DNA of 46,072 bases from a virus. Lineage: Duplodnaviria > Heunggongvirae > Uroviricota > Caudoviricetes. Position 1 is the first letter of the stretch. The number at the start of each line of letters is the position of its first letter. The notes beneath the pieces were generated by a model. The model was given only the letters and a program-made list of their open reading frames with translations, had not been told where the DNA came from and did not search any database. Both the position numbers and the translations under genes were made by a program. Below, in pieces: positions 8,057 through 46,072 of the stretch. The stretch is from IMG/VR virus record IMGVR_UViG_3300042894_006602, one strand, 5' to 3'.

Positions 8057-8108
8057 CATTTTGATCTATATATAAAAAATGGTAAATAACTTTTCTAAAC
8101 TTTCGGTT

Positions 8109-11906: not shown

Positions 11907-12509
11907 TTAATTATCATAATTAGTCTGTGGATGAGCAAATTTAAATTTCCAATAAAAAATTAATCCAAAAAATACACCAAAAATATGAGCTAAGTGGCCA
12001 ATGTGGTCGTTTGAATTTACAAAACAATAATAAAGTTCTACTATAATCAATGTTAAAAAAAATATATTCCTAAATTGAATCAAATTAACAAATTTCTGAA
12101 TAAATATTTCTTTTAGATTTATTTTTGAGAAGCCGTTAATAATCGAAACAGATATAGTTGCATAAACTGCACCAGATGCACCGATGATTCCAGAATTAGA
12201 ACCTAAACAATAAAGACCGGAACTAAAAATTCCAGCAAGTAAGTAAAATGATAAAAACTTATTTTTAAATAATTCTTCAACTTCAGGTCCAACAATCAAA
12301 AAGAACAACATATTGAAAAATAAATGTGTCGTGTCTGCATGAACAAAAAGATGCGTTACTAATTGATGTATACTAAAATCACTACTATAAATAGGGAAAA
12401 GAGCTAAGATATTTTCGAAGTAAAATCCAAAGATTGAAGAGATTTGGCAAATCCCAAAAACAATTAAATTTAATAATATAATTTTTTTAACCCACGTCAT
12501 TTTTATCAC
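11907..12509 (-). CDS. Rhomboid family intramembrane serine protease (start may be 12500)
   Basis: HLFFNM motif, GASG catalytic Ser, HLAHIFG His region and multiple hydrophobic helices. Confidence 0.9.
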   Translation of the reverse strand: MIKMTWVKKIILLNLIVFGICQISSIFGFYFENILALFPIYSSDFSIHQLVTHLFVHADTTHLFFNMLFFLIVGPEVEELFKNKFLSFYLLAGIFSSGLYCLGSNSGIIGASGAVYATISVSIINGFSKINLKEIFIQKFVNLIQFRNIFFLTLIIVELYYCFVNSNDHIGHLAHIFGVFFGLIFYWKFKFAHPQTNYDN

Positions 12510-14786: not shown

Positions 14787-15365
14787 ATGCATTATCAACA
14801 ACCAACAAACGATCCTTTAAATTATTATTATTTTAAAAATATGTTCTCTGAACAAGAAGTTAAAAATATACTTTTCAGCGTTCAGAGTTTGCCTTATGAA
14901 AATGCAAAAGTTTCATCGGGCGAACCATCAGCTGACATAAGAAAAAGCCAAGTAAAATGGATTCCAGAAAATGATGATTTTAGTTGGATTTATCAAAGAA
15001 TGTTAGAGGTAGCACTTGAAGCAAATCAAAAACTTTGGCACTTTGATATCTTTAACTCAGAAATGATGCAATATACTGAATATAATGATAAAGATGCTGG
15101 TCACTATAATTGGCATCAAGATCTAGGACCAGATATTTTATCTCACAGAAAAGTTTCAATTTCTGTACAACTTTCTGATCCAGTTTCTTATAGTGGTGGT
15201 GATTTGCAGTTCTGGACTGGTGGAGATTCAAATGTGATTTCAGTTCAAAAGTCTTTAGGTGAAGCTACTATTTTTCCGAGTTATATGATGCATCGTGTTA
15301 CTAAAGTATACTGGGGAACAAGAAAATCACTTGTTCTTTGGATTGGAGGTAGTCATTTTAAATAA
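14787..15365 (+). CDS. 2OG-Fe(II) oxygenase (prolyl hydroxylase/PKHD-like)
   Basis: HxD (WHQD), RKVSISVQLS, YSGGDL, FPSYMMHRV, RKSLV. Confidence 0.9.
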   Translation: MHYQQPTNDPLNYYYFKNMFSEQEVKNILFSVQSLPYENAKVSSGEPSADIRKSQVKWIPENDDFSWIYQRMLEVALEANQKLWHFDIFNSEMMQYTEYNDKDAGHYNWHQDLGPDILSHRKVSISVQLSDPVSYSGGDLQFWTGGDSNVISVQKSLGEATIFPSYMMHRVTKVYWGTRKSLVLWIGGSHFK

Positions 15366-16835: not shown

Positions 16836-17519
16836 ATGAAAAGAGTAAAAGGATATCAAGACTTTCTAATACAAGAAAAATTTGATGACAATTTAAAGGC
16901 TGAACTTAAAAGAATGGGTATAACCGATGAAGATGATATTAATAAATATTTGTGGTATGCTCATAGAGGAAATTTATCTAATTACCTTAGACAAGAAGGT
17001 AAAGATTTTAAATTCGGAATGTTACTTGCGATGTTTAAAGATGCTCAAGAAGCCAAAAAAAGAACAGATTTTAAGGTAGGTTTTTTCAAAGCATTACATA
17101 GAATACTTCCTATGGCTCTTGCACCTTTCTTTCCGATAGCTGCGGTTTTTGGTATTATTTTTGGATCGACCCGAGCATTCAATAAAATAATAGGACCAAT
17201 TCTAAATGATCCAACTGATAAATATGAGAGTTTCTTAGAGGCTCTTATAAAAAGAGGAATGCAAGTAGCTGAAGGTGAAATTCCAGTTAAAGATAGATTT
17301 ACAAGAGCATTTGTTGTTTCTGATAATTTAGTTGCAGCTATAAGACCTGATGTTCTTCAAAAATTTGCATCAGAATTATCTAAAAAAATGAGTGAAGAAA
17401 ATCCCGACAAAGTTGTTCCAAACGACTACATTGAGAATGAATTGAAAAGATATCTAAATAAAGAATTTGATGTAAATCCTCCAATTTTGACAAAGGATCA
17501 GTTGATTGAAGGTAAGTAG
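16836..17519 (+). CDS. Hypothetical protein with capsid-targeting-like leader (MKRVKGYQDFLIQE) and a central hydrophobic segment
   Basis: ORF track, leader pattern and segment ILPMALAPFFPIAAVFGIIFG. Confidence 0.75.
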   Translation: MKRVKGYQDFLIQEKFDDNLKAELKRMGITDEDDINKYLWYAHRGNLSNYLRQEGKDFKFGMLLAMFKDAQEAKKRTDFKVGFFKALHRILPMALAPFFPIAAVFGIIFGSTRAFNKIIGPILNDPTDKYESFLEALIKRGMQVAEGEIPVKDRFTRAFVVSDNLVAAIRPDVLQKFASELSKKMSEENPDKVVPNDYIENELKRYLNKEFDVNPPILTKDQLIEGK

Positions 17520-22615: not shown

Positions 22616-23170
22616 ATGACAACAATAATGGAAAATGTAAGCACAATGAAATGGTATATTGTTAGAGCTCAATCTAACCGTGAGAAATCTGTATCTGAAA
22701 GAATTATTAAAGATGCAGGAAAAGAACTTAATGGAAAAATCGGTAGAGTAATTGTTCCAACCGAAAAGTCATTTCATCTTAAAAACGGTAAAAAGGTACA
22801 AAGAGAAAAAGTTATGTATCCTGGATATATCTTTGTTGAAACTAGTGCTGTTGGTGAACTAAAATACTACCTTAAAGGAGTTAACGGTGCAACAGGTTTT
22901 CTTACAAATCGCGCAGGTGATGTTCAATCTTTAACTCAACTGGAAGTTGACAGAATGCTTGGAATTCAAAAACAAAAAGAAGAAAGTATTGAAATGAGTA
23001 ATCAATTTTTACCAGGAGAAGATGTAAAAGTTCTTGATGGCCCGTTTGCTGGTTTCGTTGGAACCATCGAAAGTATGAAAGACCAAAAAGTAAAAGTTGA
23101 AGTCATGATTTTTGGTAGAAAAAATCTTGTTGAACTCAACGCTCTGCAGGTAGAAAAACACAATGGCTAA
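22616..23170 (+). CDS. nusG: Transcription termination/antitermination factor NusG
   Basis: KWYIVRAQS...VPTEK...NGKK...YPGYIFVE (NGN domain) and GEDVKVLDGPFAGFVGTI...KVEVMIFGRK (KOW domain). Confidence 0.95.
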   Translation: MTTIMENVSTMKWYIVRAQSNREKSVSERIIKDAGKELNGKIGRVIVPTEKSFHLKNGKKVQREKVMYPGYIFVETSAVGELKYYLKGVNGATGFLTNRAGDVQSLTQLEVDRMLGIQKQKEESIEMSNQFLPGEDVKVLDGPFAGFVGTIESMKDQKVKVEVMIFGRKNLVELNALQVEKHNG

Positions 23171-32139: not shown

Positions 32140-32706
32140 ATGAAAATTATAAAATTTACCGAATTTATTAAAGAAGATGTTATGGAAACACCATCAAACA
32201 TGACATCAACTGCTCTTACTCAACTTAAAAAAAGAATTGACAAGTTATTTGAATTTCAACAAGATGAGTTTACAGATCAGACAGAAGAAAAAGAATTAAA
32301 ACCTAAAAGAGTTCAAAAAAAGTCAAAAGAAAAAATGACTTTTGAAGATTTGGGTGTAAGATTAGAAAGTTCAGAAGTTTCTAAATATTCTAAATTACAT
32401 GATTCTTTAACTGTAAAATTTTCAGACGACCAGTTCACATATACATTAATAATATCAATCGACATCAAAGAAGGTATGCCTAAAAAAGAAGATAAATCTA
32501 TGATGTGTGATATCAAATTCAAAAAGTATGATTTGGATACCTTTGAAATAATTGGTCAACTTCCAAGTCCAATTGATGGTGATAAATCCGAATACTTGAA
32601 AGTAGAAATAGATAAAATTGACGAAGAGTATTTAATTGACTTAAAGATTAAATTAGATGATTCTACAAACGAAGAACAAGAAGAATTTGAAATAGAAACA
32701 GAATAG
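32140..32706 (+). CDS. Acidic hypothetical protein with capsid-targeting-like leader (MKIIKFTEFIKE)
   Basis: Leader pattern, with TAATATATA at 32126..32134. Confidence 0.75.
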   Translation: MKIIKFTEFIKEDVMETPSNMTSTALTQLKKRIDKLFEFQQDEFTDQTEEKELKPKRVQKKSKEKMTFEDLGVRLESSEVSKYSKLHDSLTVKFSDDQFTYTLIISIDIKEGMPKKEDKSMMCDIKFKKYDLDTFEIIGQLPSPIDGDKSEYLKVEIDKIDEEYLIDLKIKLDDSTNEEQEEFEIETE

Positions 32707-34559: not shown

Positions 34560-35801
34560 ATGAAAGTTTTTAAATATTCAGAATTCTTAACTGAAAGTAA
34601 AATTGAAGAACTACTTTTAGAATCAAAAGTGGTCTTTTCTAAGAAGTTCTTAAATCTTCTTAATAGAATGAGAACAAATAAAATTGCATCTGAGTTAATA
34701 AACATATACTCAAAAGATTTTAATATACAACACAATTATATTGATATAACTGATAATAAAGAAGAAGTTTCTTTTACACCAGATAGAAAAGTTCAAGAAT
34801 TAACTAAAGATAAACCAGAAGTATATAAAGTAGGAACTCGTAGACAATTGACTCATAATTCTAGCAATGATAGTATTTTTGATAAACTTGGCTATGATAG
34901 ATATAAAGACTATTGGACACCAAATGATGGTCAAAAAGGTTTGATTAAATCAGAAACTGTAAGTCCTACATCTGGTAAAGTATTTGTTCTTTTTGAAGAA
35001 CTAACAGATGGTGACGAAAAAAGATATGCTGTTTTAAATAAAGACTGTTTAAGTTTATCAGAATTTGATGATTCTAATATATGGAAAACATCCAGAAATC
35101 CAATAAGAATTGGAAGACTTGTTAGACCACTTTTAAGAACAGCTGGTATTGCAGTAACTGATAGAGAAGTTGAAGAATTTACAAATCAATGGAAAGCAAC
35201 TTATGATTTTGCAGCAGATGTTTTAAAACAATTTGATGTTGTTAAAGGAAGCACTATTGCTTATTGGTATGATTATGAGAAATATGTTGATGGTGGTGGA
35301 ACACTAAACAACTCTTGTATGGCTGAAGTTGATTCAGATTACTTTGAAATCTACACATCTAATAAACAAGTATCTTTAGTTATACTTTATGATGATAACG
35401 GACAAGTTCAAGATGGAAAATACACATCAACTAAAATTAAAGGTAGAGCAATTCTTTGGGATGCTGAAATTAATGGAGTAAAAGAAATGTTTATGGATAG
35501 AATCTACACAACTTTTGATTCAGACACTGACTTATTCAAACAATTTGCTCAAAAAAACGGCTGGTTCTATAAAGATTCTCAAAGTATGACACCAAGAGAA
35601 AACATTACAAATGGAACATCTACGTCAAGACCCGAAATTATTGTCAAATTAGATAATGCTAACTGTGAATATTATCCTTACTGTGATACTATGTGTTTTT
35701 GTTATCCATCATCTAATGAATTAAGAAACACACAAGATGACGAAGATGGATCAATGAGAGTTCTTCGTTCAACAGAAGGTGAATATTATGATGAATATTA
35801 A
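34560..35801 (+). CDS. Conserved-looking phage protein with capsid-targeting-like leader (MKVFKYSEFLTE) and SCM...RAILW...DRIY...YPYCDT motifs
   Basis: Leader pattern, TTAATATATA at 34545..34554 and motifs seen in the translation. Confidence 0.75.
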   Translation: MKVFKYSEFLTESKIEELLLESKVVFSKKFLNLLNRMRTNKIASELINIYSKDFNIQHNYIDITDNKEEVSFTPDRKVQELTKDKPEVYKVGTRRQLTHNSSNDSIFDKLGYDRYKDYWTPNDGQKGLIKSETVSPTSGKVFVLFEELTDGDEKRYAVLNKDCLSLSEFDDSNIWKTSRNPIRIGRLVRPLLRTAGIAVTDREVEEFTNQWKATYDFAADVLKQFDVVKGSTIAYWYDYEKYVDGGGTLNNSCMAEVDSDYFEIYTSNKQVSLVILYDDNGQVQDGKYTSTKIKGRAILWDAEINGVKEMFMDRIYTTFDSDTDLFKQFAQKNGWFYKDSQSMTPRENITNGTSTSRPEIIVKLDNANCEYYPYCDTMCFCYPSSNELRNTQDDEDGSMRVLRSTEGEYYDEY

Positions 35802-35803
35802 TT

Positions 35804-36241
35804 ATGAAGATAAAAAAAACATATACAGAATTCATTAAAGAAAGTTCAGAGTTTATTGATGAAAAAACTATTAAAGAAGTTTTCATTGATTTAATTGATA
35901 TGGACTTTAGTTTCCGAATGTTAAGCAACAACATTACTTCTAAACAAAATGGAAAATGGTATATTGATATTAGCAAAAAAGTAGAAAGTAAATATGATTA
36001 TATAGAAAATGACTCTTCATATGGAGTCACTAATTTAGAACCAATGAAATTAGATATTACTAAAGTTTTAGACATTTTACAGTCGGCTAAAGAGACATTA
36101 ATGAGTATGGAATACACAGTTGGTTATGAAATTGAATTCAACTTTAATGACCAAAGTCATTTTTTTATTTCCTGTCATATTCAACACAATGATACTATTG
36201 GAGATGAAGATGATAGATTAGGTGATAATGAATGGCGATGA
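35804..36241 (+). CDS. Hypothetical protein with leader MKIKKTYTEFIKE; member of the IxDxLxxLxD paralogue family
   Basis: Leader followed by TIKEVFIDLIDMDF. Confidence 0.75.
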   Translation: MKIKKTYTEFIKESSEFIDEKTIKEVFIDLIDMDFSFRMLSNNITSKQNGKWYIDISKKVESKYDYIENDSSYGVTNLEPMKLDITKVLDILQSAKETLMSMEYTVGYEIEFNFNDQSHFFISCHIQHNDTIGDEDDRLGDNEWR

Positions 36242-36378: not shown

Positions 36379-38259
36379 TTACTTAACTTCTTCAAAATCC
36401 GCATCCTGAACTTCATCGTTAGGATCAGAATCATCTGAATTGGTTGGTGCTTCCTGTGATTGTTGGTACAATCTGGTGGAAATTTGAGACCAAGCATCAT
36501 TTAAGTTTTGGATAGATTCGTCGATCTTTTCAACACTTTTTTCAGAATGAGCTGTTCTCAAATCAGACAACTTCTCGTTCAATGTTATCTTATCCTCAGC
36601 AGTAAGTTTTTCATCAAACTCTTTGATTTGTTTTTCCGTTTGGAAAATTAAAGAGTCAGCAGAATTTAATTTGTCAACCATTTCTCTTTCTTTAGCATCA
36701 GACTCAGCGTTTGCTTCAGCCTCTGCTTTCATTCTTTCAATCTCTTCTTTAGATAATTGAGAACCTCCTTCAATACGAATTTGATTTTCTTTACCAGTAG
36801 CTTTATCTTTAGCAGAAACTGAAAGTATACCGTTGGCATCAATGTCTAATGTTACTTCGACTTGAGGAACACCTCTCGGAGCTGGCATAATTCCATCTAA
36901 GTGGAAACGACCAAGTGAGCGGTTGTCACGAGCCATCGGTCTTTCACCTTGTAAAACGTGAATTTCAACAGACGGTTGATTATCAGAAGCTGTTGAGAAC
37001 GTTTCTGACTTACGGGTCGGAATTGTTGTGTTAGCTTCAATCAACTTAGTCATAACTGAACCCATTGTTTCAATACCAAGTGAAAGAGGAGTTACATCTA
37101 GAAGAAGGACGTCAGTAATTCCACCAGTCAATACAGCACCCTGAATAGCAGCACCTAAAGCAACTACTTCATCTGGGTTAACTGATTTGTTTGGCTTCTT
37201 ACCAATGAACTTTTCTACAGCCTCCTGAATTGCTGGAATTCTTGTAGAACCACCAACTAAGATAACTTCATCAATCTCAGATGGTTTAAGACCAGCATTT
37301 TTAAGGGCACTTTTTGCACAAGACACAGCTCTGTCTACAAGTTTAGCCGTCATTTGGTCAAACTGAGACTTTGTTAAACTTTTAACAAAGTGAAGAGGCA
37401 TGTTATCTCGAGCCGTAATGTAAGGAAGGTTAATCTCACTTTGAGAAGTAGAAGATAATTCAATCTTCGCTTTCTCAGCAGCATCTTTCAATCTTTGTAA
37501 AGCCATAGGATCTTTAGAAAGATCAATTGAATTTTCAGACTTGAACTCACTAACCATCCACTCGATAATCGCATTATCAAAGTCATCACCACCTAAGTGA
37601 GTATCACCGTCAGTAGATTTAACTTCAAATACACCATCACCGATTTCAAGAACAGACACATCATGCGTACCACCGCCGCAATCAAATACTAAGATTTTAG
37701 CATCTGTGTTTTTCTTATCTAAACCATAAGCCAGTGCCGCAGCTGTTGGCTCGTTGATAATTCTTTCTACTTTAAGTCCAGCGATTTCACCAGCCTCAAT
37801 AGTAGCGGTTCTTTCAGCATCACCGAAGTAAGCAGGAACAGTGATAACTGCTCTTTTCACTTCGTAACCTAAATAGTCTTCAGCAGTTTTTTTCATCTTT
37901 TGAAGAATCATAGCTGAAATTTCTTGTGGTGTGTAAATTCTATCATCGATTCTTACACCAGGAACATTAGACCCTGCATTAGTCACTTCGTAAGGAACAC
38001 GAGTTACTTCACCCTTACAAACTGAAAAATCTTTACCGATGAATCTCTTAATAGAGTAAACGGTTTTGTTTGGATTAGTTACCGCTTGTCTTTTAGCAGG
38101 GTCACCAATCTTTCTGTCTTTGTCGGTAAATCCAACTACCGACGGAGTTGTTCTCTTACCCTCAGCGTTAGTGATAACAATTGGCTCACCACCTTCTACC
38201 ACTGCAACACAAGAGTTTGTCGTACCTAAGTCAATTCCTATAATTACATCTTTTGCCAT
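36379..38259 (-). CDS. dnaK: Hsp70 chaperone DnaK
   Basis: [29 protein letters not shown]-like [25 protein letters not shown]. Confidence 0.98.
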
Positions 38260-38287
38260 ATTTTATTTATTTTTTAGTTATGCTTTG

Positions 38288-38337
38288 TCAAATTGTGTGC
38301 CATCATTTTTTACTGACATAATGACAGTCTGATGACA
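38288..38337 (-). promoter_or_regulatory. Sigma54-like promoter (TGGCAC-N5-TTGA) with three upstream TGTCA direct repeats, ahead of dnaK
   Basis: The minus strand reads TGTCA-tcagac-TGTCA-tta-TGTCA-gtaaaaaatga-TGGCAC-acaat-TTGA. The sigma54 consensus is TGGCAC-N5-TTGC. Confidence 0.55.
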
Positions 38338-38384
38338 GACACTTATTTTATAGTATTCTATTCAAAAAAGTTTATATATACATT

Positions 38385-38669
38385 ATGAAATTTTTAAAAG
38401 AATTTTCAAATTGGAATCCAGTAATCAATAAAGATGTTGAAGAATTTATTCAAAAAAATAAAACTCATCTTATGCATCTTTGGAATAAAGATAAATCAGA
38501 AGAAGAAAATATTGAACTTCTAACAAAGTATTTTAGAGAGTTTCCTGAATTAATGAACGATACCGTTGATTTAAAAAATATGACAATTCCACAAACAAAA
38601 TTTGGTATTAAAAATTCAGCACCTATTCTACAGAATATCGGAGGTGTTGCAGATTTTAGAAGTTTTTAA
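38385..38669 (+). CDS. Hypothetical protein (94 aa), weak leader MKFLKEF
   Basis: ORF track, with TTTATATATA at 38371..38380. Confidence 0.7.
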   Translation: MKFLKEFSNWNPVINKDVEEFIQKNKTHLMHLWNKDKSEEENIELLTKYFREFPELMNDTVDLKNMTIPQTKFGIKNSAPILQNIGGVADFRSF

Positions 38670-38707
38670 GCTAAACCATATTTAATTAAAAGAACTGGTC
38701 CTTCTGT

Positions 38708-39433
38708 CTAAATCTGTTTAGATTTTTCGACATTAAAATCAACGTCATACGTCCTTAACTCAAAACCTCTCCTCTCAGGGTTAAAAATATGATCATTTAT
38801 AAAGTTATAACAATCTTCACCAGTTATTTCTTCTTTCTTCTTTTTAAGATATAAAGCACAGTCAATAAGAAAATTATCAATTTCTTCTTTTTCTAAATCA
38901 AAACTATTAATTGATTTTAATTTAGTTTCAAGTGTTTCACCGCCGATTTGAGTCCAACCAGAATTTAATCCGATAGCATCTAAAAAATGTTCGACTAAAT
39001 AAATATCACCACCCCATTCATCAAAGTCACTTCCAAATGATTCCCAAATAGTTGAATTAGGACAAATTCCAATTTTGACACCATCAAATGGAACTACTTC
39101 ATAAACAGTATCTCCATAAGTTCCTGTTGCTGTGCCAGGAGTTCCACCAATAACACATCTATCATACCTTGGATAATCTTTCCAACTTGGAAGATTAGAC
39201 ATCAATTCTAAGTGTATATTTGTGTCTTCAATTGAACTTCTAAAATCTCCTAATTTTGGATCTACAAAAACATAGTCTCCTAAATCCGGCATACCTCTAA
39301 AAAGTTCAGTTTCAACTTTAGTCCAGTTTTTACAATTCTCTTTTCTGATTTTATCAAATTCAGACTCAGTAATGGTTTTAGAACCAAACTTATTATAATT
39401 TTCAAATATTTTATATGACTTCAAGTATTTCAT
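38708..39433 (-). CDS. Leader-bearing protein (MKYLKSYKIFE), putative ADP-ribosyltransferase-like fold
   Basis: ELFRG, YPRYDRCVIGGT, YGDTVYEVVPFDGVKIGIC. Paralogue of 41198..42007. Confidence 0.55.
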   Translation of the reverse strand: MKYLKSYKIFENYNKFGSKTITESEFDKIRKENCKNWTKVETELFRGMPDLGDYVFVDPKLGDFRSSIEDTNIHLELMSNLPSWKDYPRYDRCVIGGTPGTATGTYGDTVYEVVPFDGVKIGICPNSTIWESFGSDFDEWGGDIYLVEHFLDAIGLNSGWTQIGGETLETKLKSINSFDLEKEEIDNFLIDCALYLKKKKEEITGEDCYNFINDHIFNPERRGFELRTYDVDFNVEKSKQI

Positions 39434-39924
39434 TTAATAAAATTTATTCGACTTTTTTTGGGGTAATCTATTGTTAAACATCTACCTCCACTTCCAAAAG
39501 CATCGTCATAAGAAATCTCTTCTATTTCAAAATATCCAAATTTAGAATAAAACTTATTAAAATCACTTTCTGAAATTATGTTTGGCTTTATTTGTGATTT
39601 TAATGCCTCTGATTCATTTTGATTTCTCCATCTTTTAGAGACACCATTATCAGAATAAACAAAGTCAATTAAATAACCATTTACTTTTATGATAATATGG
39701 TCTTCAATTTCATCAGCTTCGATAAAATCTTCATCAAGTTTTAGATATAATAAGTCGCAATTAATTTTGTTTTTGACACACCATTCATAAAAGTCTTTAG
39801 CAAAAAAAGCACAATTGCCTAAAGATTTTTCTAAGTCATATTCAGATTCAGAGATGTATTTTTCTACTATACTCTCAATTTCTTGAACAGATTCAAACAC
39901 TTTATATGTTTTAAGCCACTTCAT
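39430..39924 (-). CDS. Leader-bearing protein (MKWLKTYKVFE) with a papain/transglutaminase-like Cys-His-Asp pattern
   Basis: LGNCAFFA...DHIIIKVNGYLIDF. Confidence 0.55.
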   Translation of the reverse strand: MKWLKTYKVFESVQEIESIVEKYISESEYDLEKSLGNCAFFAKDFYEWCVKNKINCDLLYLKLDEDFIEADEIEDHIIIKVNGYLIDFVYSDNGVSKRWRNQNESEALKSQIKPNIISESDFNKFYSKFGYFEIEEISYDDAFGSGGRCLTIDYPKKSRINFIK

Positions 39925-40180
39925 CTATTAGTTCTGCCAATTTTATATCTTTTTCAGTTATAACATCTCCAGCATCATGTGTTGATAATTTTAGAGTTAT
40001 CTTATTATATAGCCAGTTTATTTCAGGATGGTGATTTTCGGATTCACATATAACTGCAATCTTATTTATGAATTCAAATGCCTGTTGAAAATCACTAAAT
40101 TCAAATTCTCTTTGAAGTTTGCCATCAACTTTTGACCAATTTGATTGGAAAAAACCTTCGTATGTTTTTATATTTTTCAT
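39911..40180 (-). CDS. phhB: Pterin-4-alpha-carbinolamine dehydratase with an N-terminal leader (MKNIKTYEGFF)
   Basis: W...LQREFEFSDFQQAFEF...ENHHPEI..YNKITLKLSTHDAG..ITEKDIKLAELID. Confidence 0.9.
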   Translation of the reverse strand: MKNIKTYEGFFQSNWSKVDGKLQREFEFSDFQQAFEFINKIAVICESENHHPEINWLYNKITLKLSTHDAGDVITEKDIKLAELIDEVA

Positions 40181-40728
40181 GCTTCTATTCCACCAAGTGC
40201 TTTAATTTTAACAATTATATTTCTAATGCAATTGACATTCGATCCGTATTGAATATTTTTAACGGTCTTATTAACCATTTTATTTATATCAGAAAATTCT
40301 GTGTCCCAAGACCTTCCCTCGGACATACCTCTGCCTATAAAAAATGTCATTTGACAATCAAATCCTTCAAGTGTCTCTTGACACTCTTTCATTATAGAAT
40401 TAACTTCATCATCTGAGATTGCACCAAATTCAACACCAATTAAATTTCCTTTTACTTCAACTGGTGAATATTGTAAATGAAAAAAGAATATGTTTTCAGC
40501 TACATAAAATTTACCCATATCTGATCTTCCTGAACTATATTCTTCTTTAGTAACTTTTTCAATTGATGTGAATATACCATCTGTAGTATTTCCAGTTAAA
40601 TCAGATTTAATTTTTTCAACGTCAGTTAGTGGTAACAAACAATCCAAAATATGTCTTATTGATATTGGATCATAATTTTTCTTCTTAAAAAAATCAAAAA
40701 ATCCTTCGTATGTTTTAATATTCTTCAC
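40177..40728 (-). CDS. Leader-bearing hypothetical protein (GTG start, MKNIKTYEGFF)
   Basis: The first 11 aa are identical to those of the adjacent dehydratase. Confidence 0.75.
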   Translation of the reverse strand: MKNIKTYEGFFDFFKKKNYDPISIRHILDCLLPLTDVEKIKSDLTGNTTDGIFTSIEKVTKEEYSSGRSDMGKFYVAENIFFFHLQYSPVEVKGNLIGVEFGAISDDEVNSIMKECQETLEGFDCQMTFFIGRGMSEGRSWDTEFSDINKMVNKTVKNIQYGSNVNCIRNIIVKIKALGGIEA

Positions 40729-41201
40729 AACTTTATTATTAATTTTAATCCAGTAAAAGAAATAAAATCACCTAAAGTAAAATCTTCTGCTTTGTGCCAT
40801 CCTATACCAAACTCGGTTCCACCATTTTTCATTCTAAATGGTGATTTTTTTCTTTGTATTGGATGACAAGTTCTATTGTCAATTGGATCTAATTTAGTTT
40901 CTGAATAAACATACTCACATAGTCTTATAATAGTATCTTTTATTTCAAACCATAAAAATAAATTATTTGAGTATCCACTACCTGGAGGAGTAGGAGCTCC
41001 TGGAATCTCTCTGGTTTTTCTTGAGTCTAAATAAGAACCTCTCGTTATATAAACTTCTAAATGATTATCGAGGTATGGAAAACCATCTACTTCTTTGATT
41101 TCAACATTGAAATTACTATCATCAGTTATATCTAATAATATATCTCTTACTGTTTGCTCAGATACGGACTCAAATAATTTATATTTTTTTAAATATCTCA
41201 T
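40725..41201 (-). CDS. Leader-bearing protein (MRYLKKYKLFE), IxDxLxxLxD paralogue family
   Basis: TVRDILLDITDDSNF...EIKDTIIRLCEYV. Confidence 0.75.
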   Translation of the reverse strand: MRYLKKYKLFESVSEQTVRDILLDITDDSNFNVEIKEVDGFPYLDNHLEVYITRGSYLDSRKTREIPGAPTPPGSGYSNNLFLWFEIKDTIIRLCEYVYSETKLDPIDNRTCHPIQRKKSPFRMKNGGTEFGIGWHKAEDFTLGDFISFTGLKLIIKL

Positions 41202-42007
41202 AAATTTTCAGACCATATTTTTAATAATCTCAAAGCCTCTTCTCTTTTAATGTCATAAGGCAAATGATCTTGTATTCTCAACATTTTTCTACCTTCAGTA
41301 GAGTTATAGAAAAGACCTATTTTATCTCTATCTGCACCTATATTATCAAAATCATCTGGTGTTAAAAGTGCTTGCTTTTTATAAGCCTTTGCTTCCTTTG
41401 GTTGTTTTGCTTCTATTGGCTTCTCGGAAACTTTGACAGTATCATTTGTCCAAGCAAATAGGGGAAGTTTTCCCCAGTAAGGTGAGTTCATCAAGTCAGC
41501 TAACTTACCAAAGCCAATCATTTGGTCTTTGATTAAAATATTTGCAGATTCCTTACTAGCTTCTGGACTATCTTGATAACTACCACTTTCAGGTTTTATT
41601 TCAAAAAGTTCTGAACTTAATAATTGTTTTACTTTATCGTTTCTTTCCACTTTGTTATGAAATTGATAAGCTCTAAAAAACCAATCATTTATAGGCATTA
41701 CAAAACACCAGCCTAATAATGAATTATCATCAACTTTTATATTATAAAGATTTTTTCCATAAAGTGAAGTTAAATGAGGATTGTCACCATAAGATACTTC
41801 ATCCATAAAATGAACACATCTGTTCTTATCTGGAAAACCCATATCAACTAAAATATCATTAAATAATTCAGGACCAACCATTCTTCTTTCAGTCGGTGTG
41901 AATTCAACTTCTGATTCGCCATTTAGTAAATCAACATGACTAAATCTTATGAAGATTGGATTATCAACATAAGCCTCAAATAATTTATATGACTTTAAAT
42001 ATTTCAT
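41198..42007 (-). CDS. Leader-bearing protein (MKYLKSYKLFE), putative ADP-ribosyltransferase-like fold
   Basis: IFIRF, FPDKNRCVHF, YGKNLYNIKVDDNSLLGWC. Paralogue of 38708..39433. Confidence 0.5.
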   Translation of the reverse strand: MKYLKSYKLFEAYVDNPIFIRFSHVDLLNGESEVEFTPTERRMVGPELFNDILVDMGFPDKNRCVHFMDEVSYGDNPHLTSLYGKNLYNIKVDDNSLLGWCFVMPINDWFFRAYQFHNKVERNDKVKQLLSSELFEIKPESGSYQDSPEASKESANILIKDQMIGFGKLADLMNSPYWGKLPLFAWTNDTVKVSEKPIEAKQPKEAKAYKKQALLTPDDFDNIGADRDKIGLFYNSTEGRKMLRIQDHLPYDIKREEALRLLKIWSENL

Positions 42008-42012
42008 TAAGA

Positions 42013-42420
42013 CTATATATTAAAAAATACAGCCAAATTTACGATTGCTGTTGTTGAAGTTTGAAACCAATCGTCTAAATGGTCATAATCTTTTTCATCT
42101 ATATAAACTTCTATTCTTTTCGGGTCATTTTCAAAGACGACACCACATTTGAACCATCTATCATCTAAGTAAGATTTAATCTGAAGTAGTTCATCTTTTA
42201 CATCTGAGAATTTAAAACGGTTATGTTCAGCAATTATGAAATAAGGAGTGTGTTTAGAAATTCCTATATCTTGACTCAAACCGTTATTTGAAATGGTGTA
42301 GAAAAATCCTCTATCCTGTAATTCTAAAAGTGTATCTGAAATAAAATTCTTATCTTCTTCAAATTGAAGAATGTTAATTTGAGATTCATTAAAATTTTGA
42401 TATGTTTTTAACTTTTTCAT
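42013..42420 (-). CDS. Leader-bearing protein (MKKLKTYQNFNE), IxDxLxxLxD paralogue family
   Basis: FISDTLLELQDRGF...FKFSDVKDELLQIKSYL. Confidence 0.75.
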   Translation of the reverse strand: MKKLKTYQNFNESQINILQFEEDKNFISDTLLELQDRGFFYTISNNGLSQDIGISKHTPYFIIAEHNRFKFSDVKDELLQIKSYLDDRWFKCGVVFENDPKRIEVYIDEKDYDHLDDWFQTSTTAIVNLAVFFNI

Positions 42421-43439
42421 TTTTGTATTAACATTTGATATTCAACTTCATAGATATCAATAATTGGAATAGTAACTTGACGTTTTTCTTCTTTTCTAAA
42501 ATTGGTGCCGACAACATAACCATAACTTCCAACAAATTCCTTTATTGTAGAAATTACACCATCTATTAAACTCTCATTAGAGTTCCATAAGGTCCTACAA
42601 CATTTAATATTTAGAAATAACTTAGGTGTCTTTTCTATACCCATCAAAGTCCGTAGTGTATAATTTATACTTGTAAAAATTTCTAAACCATCTAATTCCA
42701 ATTCCAATAACATATCTTTTACATTACTTATGATTGAGTCACATTCTTCTAATGCTTCTAAACCATACTTTTTAATCATCCTTTCTCTAAGAATGTCTTC
42801 TTCAGTAGATTCATTTGTTTTGATATCTTTTTCAACAAACTTAACTAGCAGTTGGTCAAATTGATAGTCGATTTCTTCTCCCGATATAGTTACTAATTTA
42901 TCACCATCTAATTTACAATAAAGAGGACCGGCTGCAATATGAGTAAATTCCATATTTAAGATTTCCCAACCTTGGTCATCCATATAATGAACCATATCTA
43001 ATAGTTCTTCTTTTATTTCTGGATAAGTAAATCCTGCACTTGAGCCTCTTTTAACAATATTCGCAACTATACATTGATTTTCTCTACTTATAATTTCATC
43101 CGCAATCTGAACATTGAAATCTTTATCCCATAAACTCAAAGATAGATCTCTAAGAACATCCATATATTCTTTCATTTCATACCAATTTGATTCAAGTAAT
43201 TTAGATTTTTTTCTTTTATTCATTAAATCTTTAATGAATTTTTTAATCTCATCATCATGTTCTTTTTCAGGAAGAAAAGCATAACCTCTCATTCTAGAAG
43301 ACCATTTTATCTGACCAATTACTTCACCATCTTTAATAACATTATAAGTTTCTGTTTTAGCTCCTTTTTTAGAAGTTTGTTTAGTAAACTTTAATGAAGA
43401 CTTAGATTCAAATAATCTATATGTTTTTAAATATTTCAT
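42417..43439 (-). CDS. Leader-bearing three-module protein (MKYLKTYRLFE) with internal KLLES and KTNES junctions
   Basis: Two copies of the IxDxLxxLxD module (VLRDLSLSLWDKDF; NVKDMLLELELDGL). Confidence 0.75.
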   Translation of the reverse strand: MKYLKTYRLFESKSSLKFTKQTSKKGAKTETYNVIKDGEVIGQIKWSSRMRGYAFLPEKEHDDEIKKFIKDLMNKRKKSKLLESNWYEMKEYMDVLRDLSLSLWDKDFNVQIADEIISRENQCIVANIVKRGSSAGFTYPEIKEELLDMVHYMDDQGWEILNMEFTHIAAGPLYCKLDGDKLVTISGEEIDYQFDQLLVKFVEKDIKTNESTEEDILRERMIKKYGLEALEECDSIISNVKDMLLELELDGLEIFTSINYTLRTLMGIEKTPKLFLNIKCCRTLWNSNESLIDGVISTIKEFVGSYGYVVGTNFRKEEKRQVTIPIIDIYEVEYQMLIQK

Positions 43440-44260
43440 AGTTTAATTAACCAAATTTTAGGATTTATTCCACTTAAAACATAGTAAGACATTCTTCGGT
43501 TACCACCAACTAAATACAATTTACCACCGATTTCGATAGCAGATGAAAGTGGCATTTCACCACCTCTGCCAATATGTTCATCAAAGAAATCAAAAGAACC
43601 TCCATAATAACTAACAAATTGACAAGCTTCTTGATAAGCTTGTTTATCAATATCCGGAAAATCTTTAAATACTTGTTCGGTATTTAATCTATCTTCTGCT
43701 CCTTTTTCTTTTAAGAAATCCATAGTTTTATCATAACTAACTTTTAGTCTTTGATACTCACCAGCATCTTTTAAGAATTGTGCAAAATCACCACGACCAA
43801 TTGTCTGAGAATCATCTGCCAATTTCTTCACACCTGATTCATCTAATTGAATTATTTCACCGTTCCAAAATAACTTTCTACATAACTTTATAAATTCATA
43901 GTAAGGTTTAGCATCTACTTTTTCACCATTTTTAAGTGTGTATGTTGTTTTTCTTAATAAATCTTCAGATGTAGTTCTTAGTTCTTTAGAAGGATCTGTG
44001 TGGTTTCCATTGATATTTTCAACTTGCTGTTCAAATTCTTCTGGTTCAAAATCCATAGCTTTTCCTACAGTTCCAAAGATTGATTTATCTATTGTGAACT
44101 TTTCACCATCAATAATAAATTCTTCTGGAAGTTCATCTCTTAAGTCATTGAATACTCTAAACATTTCTTTAACTTCAAATTCAGATTGACCCCAATTTAT
44201 TTTAGTTTCTTTTGAGACAAACTCTTCTGTAATAAATTCTAAATATCTTTTAATCTTCAT
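43436..44260 (-). CDS. Leader-bearing protein (MKIKRYLEFITE) with a C-terminal ParB/Sulfiredoxin-like motif
   Basis: MPLSSAIEIGGKLYLVGGNRRM. Confidence 0.6.
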   Translation of the reverse strand: MKIKRYLEFITEEFVSKETKINWGQSEFEVKEMFRVFNDLRDELPEEFIIDGEKFTIDKSIFGTVGKAMDFEPEEFEQQVENINGNHTDPSKELRTTSEDLLRKTTYTLKNGEKVDAKPYYEFIKLCRKLFWNGEIIQLDESGVKKLADDSQTIGRGDFAQFLKDAGEYQRLKVSYDKTMDFLKEKGAEDRLNTEQVFKDFPDIDKQAYQEACQFVSYYGGSFDFFDEHIGRGGEMPLSSAIEIGGKLYLVGGNRRMSYYVLSGINPKIWLIKL

Positions 44261-45210
44261 TAGTCAATAGTTCTTTTTGGCACCAGTGTATATCCGGTAT
44301 TTTTGGATGTAAATGGTAATCTTTTAATCACTTTAAATGTGGATAATCTACTTAATGGTATGTTTTCAAGTTCTCCAGATTTATCACTAAGTATTCCACA
44401 ATGGTATATTTTGCCTTCTTTTTTATCAGACCAATCGAAATATATGTAATATATTTTTTTTGATTGTTCGTCATAGGCAATATCACCAGACATTGGTGAT
44501 AAATCTTTATTCTTAATGATTAATCTTTTGAGATGTTCTGGATCAAAATTTCTGAGGGATTGAGGATTTGATTCTTTCCAGAATTTAAACCATCTACCTA
44601 ATTTTGATTCTAATTCAGGATCGACTTGGAGATAATCTTTTGATACAAATTTAGTTGATACAAAGTTTTTTACTACTAAATCAAAGTCACCTTTAAAATT
44701 CTTATCAAAAACTAAAACAGATTGATCAGCAAGTAAAGAAATAAAATCATTATCTTGAATAATTTTAGACCAAAGTTTTTTCGCTGCTACTTTAGCAACT
44801 TGATTACTTGAACCATATCCTAAATGCTTTATGAATTGTTTGTAAATAATTAAACCAAGACCAGAACCTTTTGATTCAGGTGGTATTCCAGGAACAAAAT
44901 GTAATCTATTATTATGATATTTAACTCTTGATATAATTAAGTATTGTTTATCGTGATCAGTTTCTTTACTATAATCACCTAAAAAAGGATATTTTTTGAC
45001 AATATCATCAGGTAATATAACTCTGTATAATTCTTCAGTATCTTCTTGTTTAAATAATTCAAAATTAATTTTGATATCTTTTACATCATTTGGATTAACA
45101 ACCGGTGCCTCTGAAAAATTACCTTTAGGTGATTTAGGTATGCTTAACCAAGAATCTTCATTCGGTGTTATTGCCTCAATAGTAAAATCTAAATACCTTT
45201 TAATTCTCAT
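44260..45210 (-). CDS. Leader-bearing protein (MRIKRYLDFTIE) with a GNAT-like acetyltransferase motif
   Basis: LHFVPGIPPESKGSGLGLIIYKQF...GSS...AAKKLWSKI (acetyl-CoA-binding xxGxG motif). Confidence 0.6.
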   Translation of the reverse strand: MRIKRYLDFTIEAITPNEDSWLSIPKSPKGNFSEAPVVNPNDVKDIKINFELFKQEDTEELYRVILPDDIVKKYPFLGDYSKETDHDKQYLIISRVKYHNNRLHFVPGIPPESKGSGLGLIIYKQFIKHLGYGSSNQVAKVAAKKLWSKIIQDNDFISLLADQSVLVFDKNFKGDFDLVVKNFVSTKFVSKDYLQVDPELESKLGRWFKFWKESNPQSLRNFDPEHLKRLIIKNKDLSPMSGDIAYDEQSKKIYYIYFDWSDKKEGKIYHCGILSDKSGELENIPLSRLSTFKVIKRLPFTSKNTGYTLVPKRTID

Positions 45211-45215
45211 AACAC

Positions 45216-45225
45216 TATATATAAA
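45216..45225 (-). promoter_or_regulatory. TTTATATATA motif 5 nt upstream of the first gene of the leader-protein operon
   Basis: Same motif and spacing as upstream of other leader-bearing genes. It directly follows a terminator. Confidence 0.5.
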
Positions 45226-45250
45226 AAAAGAGAGGTTAAAAACCTCTCTT
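45223..45250 (-). terminator. Intrinsic terminator after the RNA ligase gene
   Basis: AAGAGAGGTT-AAA-AACCTCTCTT perfect stem, with a T-tract on the minus strand. Confidence 0.85.
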
Positions 45251-46072
45251 AATTATCTTCTAATTCATCTGGTTCATTAAAAAACAATCCAGAATCTTTT
45301 GATTGTAACCATTCTCTGGCTATTTCTAATCTCTTAGTTTTGTCTCTTATACTCTCAACAGCTAAGTTATAAGGCTGACATTTTTCAATCGATTTTTCCC
45401 AATCTTCAACTGAATCATAGTATTCTAAAACTTGTTCTTTAGACATTGACTTTAACTTCTCAGTTTTATCCAAACTCATAACAAAATGAAAGTTAGTATT
45501 TCCAACTCTATGATTGATAGCATAATCTCTTTTATCAGAACCTGACTTAACAAATTCCGAGTAAGCGGATGTCATTTGAGAAACCAATTTATTAATTTCC
45601 ATTTTAACAATTGAAATTATCTTTTGAATTCTTTCGTGTGCTTCTTTTTCATCTTCAGGAATTTGACCTAAGATATCATCTATTTTATCATCTAAGATAT
45701 ATCCAATAATAATATGTTCTCTATAAATATCATTTGTAAGTAGTCCGTGACGTTGGCAATACCAATCAGTTTTTATTTTAACCATATGGTCGTTATCAAA
45801 TTGAACAATCCAACCTTCTCTTTCTGCTTCAGTTTTAGACTTTTCAATTAAACCATCTAAAGTATCATCATCCTCAAAAGGAGCAATTTTAATTGAACCA
45901 ATCTTATCTAAATGGTCTTTGATATCGATATGTTTTCCGGTCTTGTTATCTCTTAGTCTTAAAAGTATCAACTCTTCTTGTGAGTATCTTAAAACTATAC
46001 GGTTGTGGGGTGCGACATACTCAAATATTGGAACAATATCATTATTCAAAGCCCAATCAACAAAAGAATTTA
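45249..46072 (-). CDS. T4 Rnl1-type RNA ligase, 5' end outside the window
   Basis: The frame stays open to the window edge (..NSFVDWALNNDIV). Motifs FEYVAPHNRIVLRY, EGWIV, MVKIKTDWY. Confidence 0.85.
   Translation of the reverse strand, partial: NSFVDWALNNDIVPIFEYVAPHNRIVLRYSQEELILLRLRDNKTGKHIDIKDHLDKIGSIKIAPFEDDDTLDGLIEKSKTEAEREGWIVQFDNDHMVKIKTDWYCQRHGLLTNDIYREHIIIGYILDDKIDDILGQIPEDEKEAHERIQKIISIVKMEINKLVSQMTSAYSEFVKSGSDKRDYAINHRVGNTNFHFVMSLDKTEKLKSMSKEQVLEYYDSVEDWEKSIEKCQPYNLAVESIRDKTKRLEIAREWLQSKDSGLFFNEPDELEDN

Follow-up and report, generated by a model that had tools for sequence, protein, structure and literature searches.

The 46,072-nt window analyzed here, i.e., the whole stretch of DNA of IMG/VR record IMGVR_UViG_3300042894_006602, contains at positions 38708-45210 ten consecutive minus-strand open reading frames (ORFs), called g10 to g1 below, and all ten products carry an N-terminal leader of 11 to 12 residues that can in general be written M-[KR]-x-[LI]-[KR]-x-[YF]-x-x-F-E. 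The original prediction, made from the letters alone, had described them as an operon of unrelated proteins with a capsid-targeting-like leader and as a library of injected effectors, and the ten ORFs are present with N-termini exactly as it gave them. The first gene in the block is g10 (44260..45210; 316 aa; leader MRIKRYLDFTIE), which is followed by g9 (43436..44260; 274 aa; leader MKIKRYLEFITE), g8 (42417..43439; 340 aa; leader MKYLKTYRLFE), g7 (42013..42420; 135 aa; leader MKKLKTYQNFNE), g6 (41198..42007; 269 aa; leader MKYLKSYKLFE), g5 (40725..41201; 158 aa; leader MRYLKKYKLFE), g4 (40177..40728; 183 aa; GTG start; leader (M)KNIKTYEGFF), g3 (39911..40180; 89 aa; same leader, MKNIKTYEGFF), g2 (39430..39924; 164 aa; leader MKWLKTYKVFE), and g1 (38708..39433; 241 aa; leader MKYLKSYKIFE). 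Six of the nine junctions are 4-nt overlaps (ATGA or GTGA), in agreement with what had been said of most of them, and the others are a 1-nt overlap (g10/g9), a 14-nt overlap (g3/g2), and a 5-nt gap (g7/g6). The upstream bound also proved to be as described, with a terminator-like hairpin of a 10-bp stem and a T-run (45228..45250, minus strand), which ends the upstream RNA ligase gene, and then the promoter-like motif TTATATATA (45216..45224, minus strand) 5 nt ahead of the ATG of g10. A second promoter-like motif, TAATATATA (42014..42022, minus strand), overlaps the stop codon of g7 and precedes g6 by 6 nt, and the block may therefore hold two transcription units.

Since the leader codons for Lys, Leu, Tyr, Phe, and Glu vary synonymously, the constraint on the leader acts on the peptide; even g3 and g4, whose 11-residue leaders are identical, differ by four synonymous changes and by their start codons, ATG versus GTG. 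Past the leader, the claimed divergence was borne out by an all-against-all BLASTP comparison of the proteins minus their first 13 residues, in which the best E value was 0.025. The leader lies outside the fold and is disordered in both AlphaFold2 (AF2) models, those of g1 and g10. Seven of the ten leaders end with a hydrophobic-x-Glu triplet, namely, I/V/L-F-E in g1, g2, g5, g6, and g8, I-T-E in g9, and F-N-E in g7, while the leader of g10 ends with T-I-E.

The N-termini of the T4 internal proteins, as we read them in NC_000866, are MKTYQEFIAE for ipII and ipIII, as stated in the original prediction, and MKTFKEFTS for ipI. When a profile built only from the 14 leaders of the window (the ten of the block and four more, described below) was run over the N-termini of 105 T4 ORFs (63 kb), ipIII (16.1 bits), ipII (15.9 bits), and ipI (9.6 bits) were the top three, the next one scoring 5.2 bits, and the g9 leader has six of nine residues identical to KTYQEFIAE of ipII and ipIII. 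Because the window profile ranks exactly these three proteins highest, the leader and the T4 capsid targeting sequence (CTS) count, by an objective measure of sequence likeness, as the same motif. The T4 CTS is a propeptide of 10 to 20 residues which brings internal proteins to the scaffolding core, is cut after Glu by the gp21 protease, and can package foreign proteins (Mullaney and Black 1996, as reviewed in PMC3012670 and PMC5694885; PMC3012670; PMC5694885); the internal proteins that bear it are injected, and IPI counters restriction (PMC3012670). In both cases a short N-terminal peptide sits on otherwise unrelated proteins, the layout M-K-x-[YF]-x-E-F-I-x-E of T4 has its counterpart here in M-K-I-K-R-Y-L-E-F-I-T-E and M-K-Y-L-K-x-Y-K-x-F-E, and both end with hydrophobic-x-Glu, as gp21 sites do. 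The window leader differs by an extra basic-hydrophobic turn, K-Y-L-K, ahead of the common part, and also in the number of its bearers, which are three genes in T4 but roughly a hundred per genome in the clade of the window, enzymes included.

The PrkA protein of the window is 85% identical to ORFs of two uncultured-phage records, LR745206.1 (635 kb) and LR756502.1 (642 kb), which we take to be members of the Mahaphage group (Al-Shayeb et al. 2020). In LR745206.1, the closest complete relative (634,780 bp; 916 ORFs called), the profile of the 14 window leaders with a cutoff of 8 bits matched 96 of 916 N-termini, compared with 15 of 3,119 windows starting at internal Met residues, and a position-specific scoring matrix (PSSM) of eight window leaders found 52 N-termini at ≥12 bits versus a mean of 1.7 when its columns 3 to 11 were permuted. 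Glu is present at positions 7 to 14 in 94 of these 96 leaders, a count that is partly circular since the profile includes Glu, and is followed at P1' by Ser, Asn, or Ala in 62 of the 94. The tagged genes of this relative are clustered, with 30 adjacent pairs where 10 ± 2.9 are expected, and their longest run is of five genes, so that the ten-gene run of the window is exceptional. Elsewhere, a strict DNA pattern of the leader picked out 52 IMG/VR stretches, many of them on contigs of 100 to 480 kb.

The leader is not operon-specific within the window either. Four more genes, all on the plus strand, begin with it: 16836..17519 (MKRVKGYQDFLIQE; promoter-like motif 4 nt upstream), 32140..32706 (MKIIKFTEFIKE; promoter-like motif upstream), 34560-35801 (MKVFKYSEFLTE; a member of a family with eight paralogues in LR745206.1), and 35804-36241 (MKIKKTYTEFIKE). 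The leaders are thus present in the block as had been seen, and what did not hold is their being a property of the operon. A Pfam family is recognized in only 1 of the 14 leader genes of the window versus 22 of the 32 others (p = 2e-4), and no topoisomerase, kinase, chaperone, replication, or repair gene of the window is tagged, which answers the concern that the leader profile might fall on replication and metabolic genes equally often. Among the 20 long tagged proteins of LR745206.1, 17 have no Pfam family and the remaining three are RNA-end enzymes, namely, an RNA ligase 1, a PolyA_pol/CCA-type enzyme, and a fusion of a 2H phosphoesterase with an RNase T-type exonuclease.

The tagged genes have a promoter-like motif in common with the head genes. 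Twelve copies of T[AT]ATATATA, a motif that may be likened to the T4 late promoter TATAAATA, are present in the window compared with 3.5 expected, a count of 12 being reached in none of 100 shuffles, and all of them but one lie no more than ~30 nt upstream of a gene start; among them are those at 8067, 11863, 13619, 16823, 19450, 32126, 34546, 38372, 42014, and 45216. Seven of the window genes preceded by it are tagged or weakly tagged, and the others include the gene of a 1675-aa collagen-repeat protein and a gene of the type IX secretion system (T9SS) type. In LR745206.1, 43 of 96 tagged genes (45%) and 132 of 820 others (16%; odds ratio 4.2, p = 1e-9) have the motif no more than 45 nt ahead of their start, which makes 175 of 916 genes in all; among these are the portal, protease-scaffold, and capsid genes and several ORFs of >1000 aa. 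The distance from the motif to the ATG falls into two classes, one of 4 to 6 nt and one of 17 to 32 nt, the latter being that of the portal, protease-scaffold, and capsid genes and of the giant ORFs, and the 4- to 6-nt spacing suggests leaderless or near-leaderless mRNAs.

The head module of LR745206.1 is arranged in T4 order, with a gp20-like portal (E value, 4e-21) and a gp23-like capsid protein (E value, 6.6e-6) whose N-terminus resembles that of gp23. Between the two genes lies one for a 707-residue protease-scaffold fusion (LR745206.1 198546-200669). Its protease domain, the first ~200 residues, matches Pfam Peptidase_S77 below the threshold (E value, 1e-4), but it is similar to the bona fide Peptidase_S77 protein of phage Atu_ph07 (gp204) with an E value of 7.7e-25 and keeps both the His motif GE[FL][DN]HP of T4 gp21 (as GEFDHP) and the Ser motif VSSR. 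The remaining ~500 residues are scaffold-like, with tandem 14-residue repeats YSEY[IL]AENLDKNI followed by a very acidic stretch, and the repeats hold about a dozen [LI]-A-E sites resembling the end of the T4 CTS; in T4, by contrast with this fusion, protease and scaffold are encoded by the separate genes 21 and 22. Several small leader genes adjoin the head genes of LR745206.1. The prohead protease of the gp21 kind that had been proposed as a check is found, with gp20- and gp23-like genes, in the two closest complete relatives; for the window phage itself, the analysis covered the 46-kb stretch.

Virion proteomes of cultured jumbo phages offer a link between such leaders and the head. By tblastn, homologues of g1 were detected in three of these phages, Atu_ph07, SCTP-2, and RsoM2USA. 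In BLASTP, g1 matched AUZ94865-68, 70, and 71 of Atu_ph07 (gp53-56, 58, and 59) with E values of 3e-13 to 5e-10, and all six are in the virion proteome (PMC6102473 Table S5), which makes g1 a member of a family present in the virions of a cultured jumbo phage. These proteins belong to a run of consecutive minus-strand genes (Atu_ph07 39484-50592), gp53 to gp63, which all start with M[KR]W[EHQND]QL[TN]E and were all detected in virions (PMC6102473 Table S5). We matched ORFs to the virion table by molecular weight (0.01 kDa, gp53-gp65) and gene order, and gp381 by counting annotated coding sequences. Genome-wide, 18 ORFs of Atu_ph07 match M[KR][WFYL]xx[LIFM]xE, of which the virion table includes 17 (odds ratio 79, p = 6e-12); 12 of the 18 belong to the g1-like family, and among the unrelated ones five of six are virion proteins (p = 0.0015). 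Atu_ph07 has homologues of gp20, gp21, and gp23 (PMC6102473 Table S3), and its Peptidase_S77 match scores 77.5 bits. The link between leader and virion in this phage is made in the present analysis, the words "internal" and "prohead protease" being absent from the main text of PMC6102473. As a separate observation, gel band 9, where gp53 of Atu_ph07 (87 kDa) reached its highest abundance, corresponds to a size far smaller than that of the protein (PMC6102473), which suggests processing.

RsoM2USA, whose Peptidase_S77 protease scores 103 bits, provides a second case. Its ORF89 (RsoM2USA_89) starts with MKTFKQFLSE, is the second-best match of the window profile among 479 ORFs, and was one of ten proteins to which the most abundant virion bands were traced (PMC8504454). 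The g1 family has a different, lineage-specific leader in each phage lineage, as would be expected of a leader that is recognized by the assembly machinery of the particular lineage. RsoM2USA also has a small leader family of its own that resembles T4 IPI, M[KQT]TFK[QE][FY]L[ST]E, which comprises g1-family homologues (RsoM2USA_404 and _405) and ORF89. An ORF at 339 kb in this phage was considered as virion ORF438 on account of its molecular weight, but the place where it lies disagrees with the numbering of the ORFs, and we regard the agreement as a coincidence.

On both sides of the block the neighbors are conserved. Upstream lies the RnlA-like RNA ligase gene (45249..46070, minus strand; weak T4_Rnl1_C match; N-terminus beyond the window), which is 55% identical to LR745206.1 470485-471747 (RNA_lig_T4_1; starting with MKLFKYIEFINE), and downstream lies, without a leader, the phage DnaK/Hsp70 gene (36379..38259, minus strand; HSP70 826.9 bits), which is 85% identical to LR745206.1 473636-475510. 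The interval from RnlA to DnaK holds ten genes in the window but only about three in LR745206.1, one of them a partial match to g8, and only g5 and g8 of the whole block have any homologue in that genome. The homologues of g10 stand among entirely different genes on two long contigs, and those of g1 and g8 are ~440 kb apart in LR756502.1. Since the flanks are conserved while the gene number differs and the homologues lie elsewhere, the block is, to judge from these comparisons, a variable cassette slot. The ten linked minus-strand genes of the predicted operon are thus there, but as a conserved operon the block does not stand, given its internal promoter-like motif and the homologues found elsewhere with other neighbors. 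The tag itself is portable: the fold of g3 starts after the leader, orthologues swap leader class, and distant homologues are without it. Some homologues of the g3 pterin dehydratase and of g1 carry two tandem leaders, e.g., MKRIKTYTLFERVSEETKLFES; such a doubled leader looks like a tag duplication or a footprint of recombination between tags.

We therefore consider it likely that the leader serves as a capsid-targeting propeptide of the T4 type for head cargo encoded in a variable cassette, and, with similar confidence, that g10 to g1 represent one local cluster within a larger tagged accessory set, which takes up about one gene in ten in Mahaphage-type huge phages. From the analogy with T4, we infer scaffold binding, cleavage, packaging in the window phage, injection, and effector activity. 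Tagged genes would be transcribed from the same TAATATATA-type class of promoters as the head genes; the 11- to 12-residue leader would dock the new protein on the scaffolding core of the assembling prohead; and a gp21-family prohead protease would remove it after the Glu of a hydrophobic-x-Glu triplet that is mostly followed by Ser, Asn, or Ala. The mature protein would then remain in the head with the DNA and probably be delivered into the host at infection, while the tagged cassettes may be shuffled into the RnlA-DnaK interval. Of the payload library loaded through a shared tag that had been proposed, the head address of the T4 CTS kind is supported by the T4 motif, the protease and head module of the relatives, the shared promoter motif, and two virion proteomes; its restriction to one operon is not.

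Several observations weigh against this interpretation. The leaders of g3 and g4 are without the F-E site and offer only T-Y-E-G, and many leaders of LR745206.1 have Thr or Phe at P3, not Leu or Ile. The promoter-like motif also stands ahead of some nonstructural genes of LR745206.1, e.g., a class I aminoacyl-tRNA-synthetase-like ORF. The window phage is uncultured, and protease and capsid genes are seen only in its relatives. Tagging of ~10% of the genes far exceeds anything known for T4, the tagged RNA-end enzymes of LR745206.1 are not known as packaged proteins in T4, and a pterin dehydratase is odd as injected cargo. As for the cultured phages, the leaders of Atu_ph07 and RsoM2USA differ in sequence from that of the window, the 17 of 18 ORFs counted in Atu_ph07 refer to a leader pattern defined after its gp53-63 array had been seen, and the virions of Atu_ph07 were purified with polyethylene glycol (PMC6102473), which allows some contamination. 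Neither of the two proteome papers reports processing at the N-terminus.

Four other explanations were weighed, each of which is contradicted by at least two independent results. The leader might target the prohead while its cargo has a part in assembly or in the packing of DNA (as core, scaffold, or condensation proteins), with enzyme-like domains that are incidental or inactive, in place of injected effectors. Nine of the ten proteins have no recognizable catalytic family, the small leader genes beside the head genes of LR745206.1 recall T4 gp67 and gp68, and the Atu_ph07 data speak of presence in virions and not of ejection. We nevertheless find this unlikely, as even close relatives differ widely in their cargo, whose genes here occupy a variable slot, and such variation fits accessory or arms-race roles better than core assembly; clear enzymes are tagged (the pterin dehydratase here and RNA ligase 1, the CCA-adding enzyme, and the 2H phosphoesterase-exonuclease in LR745206.1); and the CTS-bearing proteins of T4 are injected, IPI acting against restriction (PMC3012670). 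A tag for some other purpose, such as recognition by the phage Hsp70, timed degradation, or another intracellular address, with a merely convergent likeness to the T4 CTS, is slightly less probable still. It would account for the phage DnaK gene directly beside the block, for the very many tagged proteins, which with their RNA-repair enzymes are unexpected for head cargo, and for the alternation of basic and bulky hydrophobic residues in the leader. Hsp70 client motifs have just such an alternation. It would leave unexplained why the window profile selects exactly the three T4 internal proteins, why leaders of an analogous kind are predictive of a location in the virion for two cultured jumbo phages, why the relatives encode a protease to match and a scaffold with many [LI]AE sites, and why tagged genes have the promoter motif of the head genes.

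Conservation could also reside in the RNA, as an A/T-rich 5' coding start required to initiate translation of mRNAs that have no leader or no Shine-Dalgarno site in a Bacteroidota-type host, the peptide itself being without function; indeed, the leader codons are all A/T-rich, and the promoter-like motif ends 4 to 6 nt ahead of many start codons. However, most of the ten genes are internal and overlapping and keep the leader without a promoter motif of their own, the leaders keep Tyr, Phe, and Glu despite free variation among synonymous codons, and column-permuted PSSMs of equal composition match ~30 times fewer N-termini. The same promoter spacing is moreover shown by untagged genes, and the same peptide layout is found in T4, which uses Shine-Dalgarno sites, and in phages of 37 to 41% G+C, so that we deem this explanation very improbable. 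Least probable of all, by a small step, is that the ten proteins are diverged paralogues of one ancestor whose best-conserved remnant is the leader. Tandem arrays of true paralogues with a common leader do exist, as in Atu_ph07 gp53-63 and in the eight-member family of LR745206.1, but here similarity past residue 13 is undetectable, g3 is a canonical Pterin_4a domain with cellular-type relatives that have no leader, the models of g1 and g10 differ in architecture and match different fold classes weakly, and orthologues swap leader classes independently of the protein bodies.

Capsid targeting of head cargo is of a kind known from T4, the novelty lying in its scale and in its occurrence among huge phages; a full-text literature search that combined the CTS with huge phages, jumbo phages, or metagenomes returned no paper describing such tagged sets. 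The closest precedent for the slot is found in the variable internal-protein loci of T-even phages, where unrelated, quickly exchanged genes with only an N-terminal tag in common are likewise held between conserved flanks, and where the internal proteins are diverse, counter host defenses, and have only the CTS in common (PMC3012670); those loci differ in that the block here has ten genes in up to two transcription units, none of them homologous to a T-even internal protein. In phiKZ-like giants (SPN3US, phiKZ, and 201phi2-1), many head-internal proteins are ejected into the host, and proteases homologous to gp21 cut the propeptides of ejection or inner-body proteins after A/S/G-x-Glu (PMC5694885). 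Our system would resemble theirs in its protease of the gp21 family, in processing behind a Glu residue, in its many head-internal proteins, and in the conserved N-termini that diverged proteins have in common, but the phiKZ-like propeptides are mostly >100 residues long, have no common short motif, and belong to ~8 processed proteins, whereas the window tag is short, T4-like, and far more numerous. The Atu_ph07 array gp53-gp63 is similar in having more than ten consecutive minus-strand genes with a short leader that ends with L-x-E in a phage with gp20, gp21, and gp23 homologues; unlike the block, it is one paralogous family, and its leader sequence differs.

In a broader proposal, to which we hold only tentatively, about a tenth of the genes of Mahaphage-type phages (~100 proteins) would encode CTS-addressed, injected head cargo that includes RNA-repair enzymes, pterin dehydratase, and orphan proteins; the injected proteome would be readable from sequence, the leader would covary with the protease and scaffold of each lineage, and slots like RnlA-DnaK would exchange tagged counterdefense cassettes. 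If the tag works as in T4, sequence alone would suffice to predict which proteins a huge uncultured phage carries in its head. The cargo set would then be about thirty times as large as the three internal proteins of T4 and would act as a first wave of enzymes or counterdefense factors ahead of any phage gene expression, which would also give a purpose to a considerable part of the orphan genes that huge phages carry. Variable cassette slots would be places to seek new antidefense proteins, and the short lineage-specific packaging tags might serve for loading foreign proteins into large capsids.

As to the individual proteins, the enzyme-like folds that had been suggested fared unequally: the pterin dehydratase stood up to profile comparison, while the GNAT-like (g10), ADP-ribosyltransferase (ART)-like (g1), and ParB-like (g9) assignments were not confirmed and are weak leads. 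The product of g3 is solidly assigned by its sequence as a pterin-4a-carbinolamine dehydratase (domain at residues 13-88), with 94.3 bits for Pfam Pterin_4a (PF01329; cutoff, 26) and 81.4 bits for NCBIfam NF002017 (cutoff, 80). It has ~80 phage-type homologues with leader variants, some of them doubled, and its most distant homologues (38 to 54% identity) have bacterial-type N-termini without the leader. In one metagenomic protein of 154 aa, a g7-like C-terminal segment is joined to a pterin dehydratase, which is either a reading of adjacent g7 and g3 homologues as one gene or a true fusion.

The leader is kept in 83 metagenomic homologues of g1. The AF2 model of g1 has a predicted local distance difference test (pLDDT) score of 85.7, with residues 1 to 11 below 50. 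In VIA-align, Z scores did not exceed 4.2, and 10 of 32 rows had the ART fold (Arr, AvrPphF, Tpt1, SpvB, PARPs, and DarT); conserved R46, S67, and E112 are suggestive only for an ART triad (R-S-E or H-Y-E). There was no match in the PDB by sequence or by Foldseek, AFDB clusters gave uncharacterized proteins only, hhalign gave no match between g1 and T4 Alt, and in the family libraries g1 hits only phrog_12810, to which PHROGs assigns no function. The gene ends with an in-frame TAG in place of a nearly invariant Trp, and the next 13 codons encode TEGPVLLIKYGLA, the tail that is conserved in all homologues; this remnant of the C-terminus (38663..38707, minus strand) shares 7 nt with the end of the convergent gene 38385-38669. 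With the TAG, 14 residues are lost, through either a recent nonsense mutation or a sequence variant; stop-codon recoding was considered and rejected, TAG being an ordinary stop in 9 of the 46 genes of the window.

For g10, 22 metagenomic homologues (69 to 97% identity) give the leader consensus MxIKxYxxFIxE, in which only F9 and E12 are invariant, and a conserved G-x-G-L-G with invariant G115, G117, L118, and G119. Its AF2 model is of medium quality (pLDDT 66.5; residues 1 to 32 disordered), and the top rows of Foldseek against the PDB are mostly GNAT acetyltransferases with weak scores (E value, 0.02 to 0.2; TM score, 0.2 to 0.4); neither Pfam nor a PDB sequence search gave a match. The orthologues of g9 and of g10 carry different leader classes. 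In g9, a C-terminal GGNRRM is nearly invariant (G, G, R, and R invariant, M in at least 90%), the ParB lead is a weak one consisting of 5 ParB_N clusters among 100 Atlas feature neighbors, and no match was found in Pfam, in the PDB (sequence or profile), or in the phage collection. Only the first ~80 residues of g8 have homologues, in three Mahaphage records and at unrelated genome positions; the weak homologues of g5 in LR745206.1 themselves bear the leader; and g2 matches only unnamed viral clusters in Atlas. For g7 no family match was obtained (Pfam, PHROGs, and NCBIfam), g6 had neither a family match nor a match in the phage collection, and PHROGs and NCBIfam gave nothing for the block beyond phrog_12810 for g1 and the dehydratase for g3. 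Apart from g1, g3, g9, and g10, none of the ten products offers a lead to its fold. In LR745206.1, the tagged product of 448257-449573, a 2H phosphoesterase (weak Acb1-like match) with an RNase T-type exonuclease, is a candidate packaged enzyme directed against cyclic-nucleotide signaling or serving RNA-end repair.

By its gene content, the window is DNA of a huge-phage type related to T4. It encodes split topoisomerase II subunits, a FEN-type nuclease, a dCMP deaminase, UvdE, and NusG, together with a PrkA-DUF444-SpoVR trio, DnaK, the RnlA-like ligase, two giant collagen-repeat proteins, and a GEVED/T9SS-type surface protein. No match to positions 38000-46072 was found by megablast in the phage collection, an exact 60-nt pattern taken from the window did not occur in IMG/VR or among the JGI metagenome contigs, and no tRNA genes or Rfam families were found in the window. 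Among its untagged genes are those of a rhomboid-family membrane protease (11907-12509, minus strand), a 2-oxoglutarate (2OG)-Fe(II) oxygenase (14787-15365, plus strand), and a NusG/Spt5-like factor (22616-23170, plus strand).

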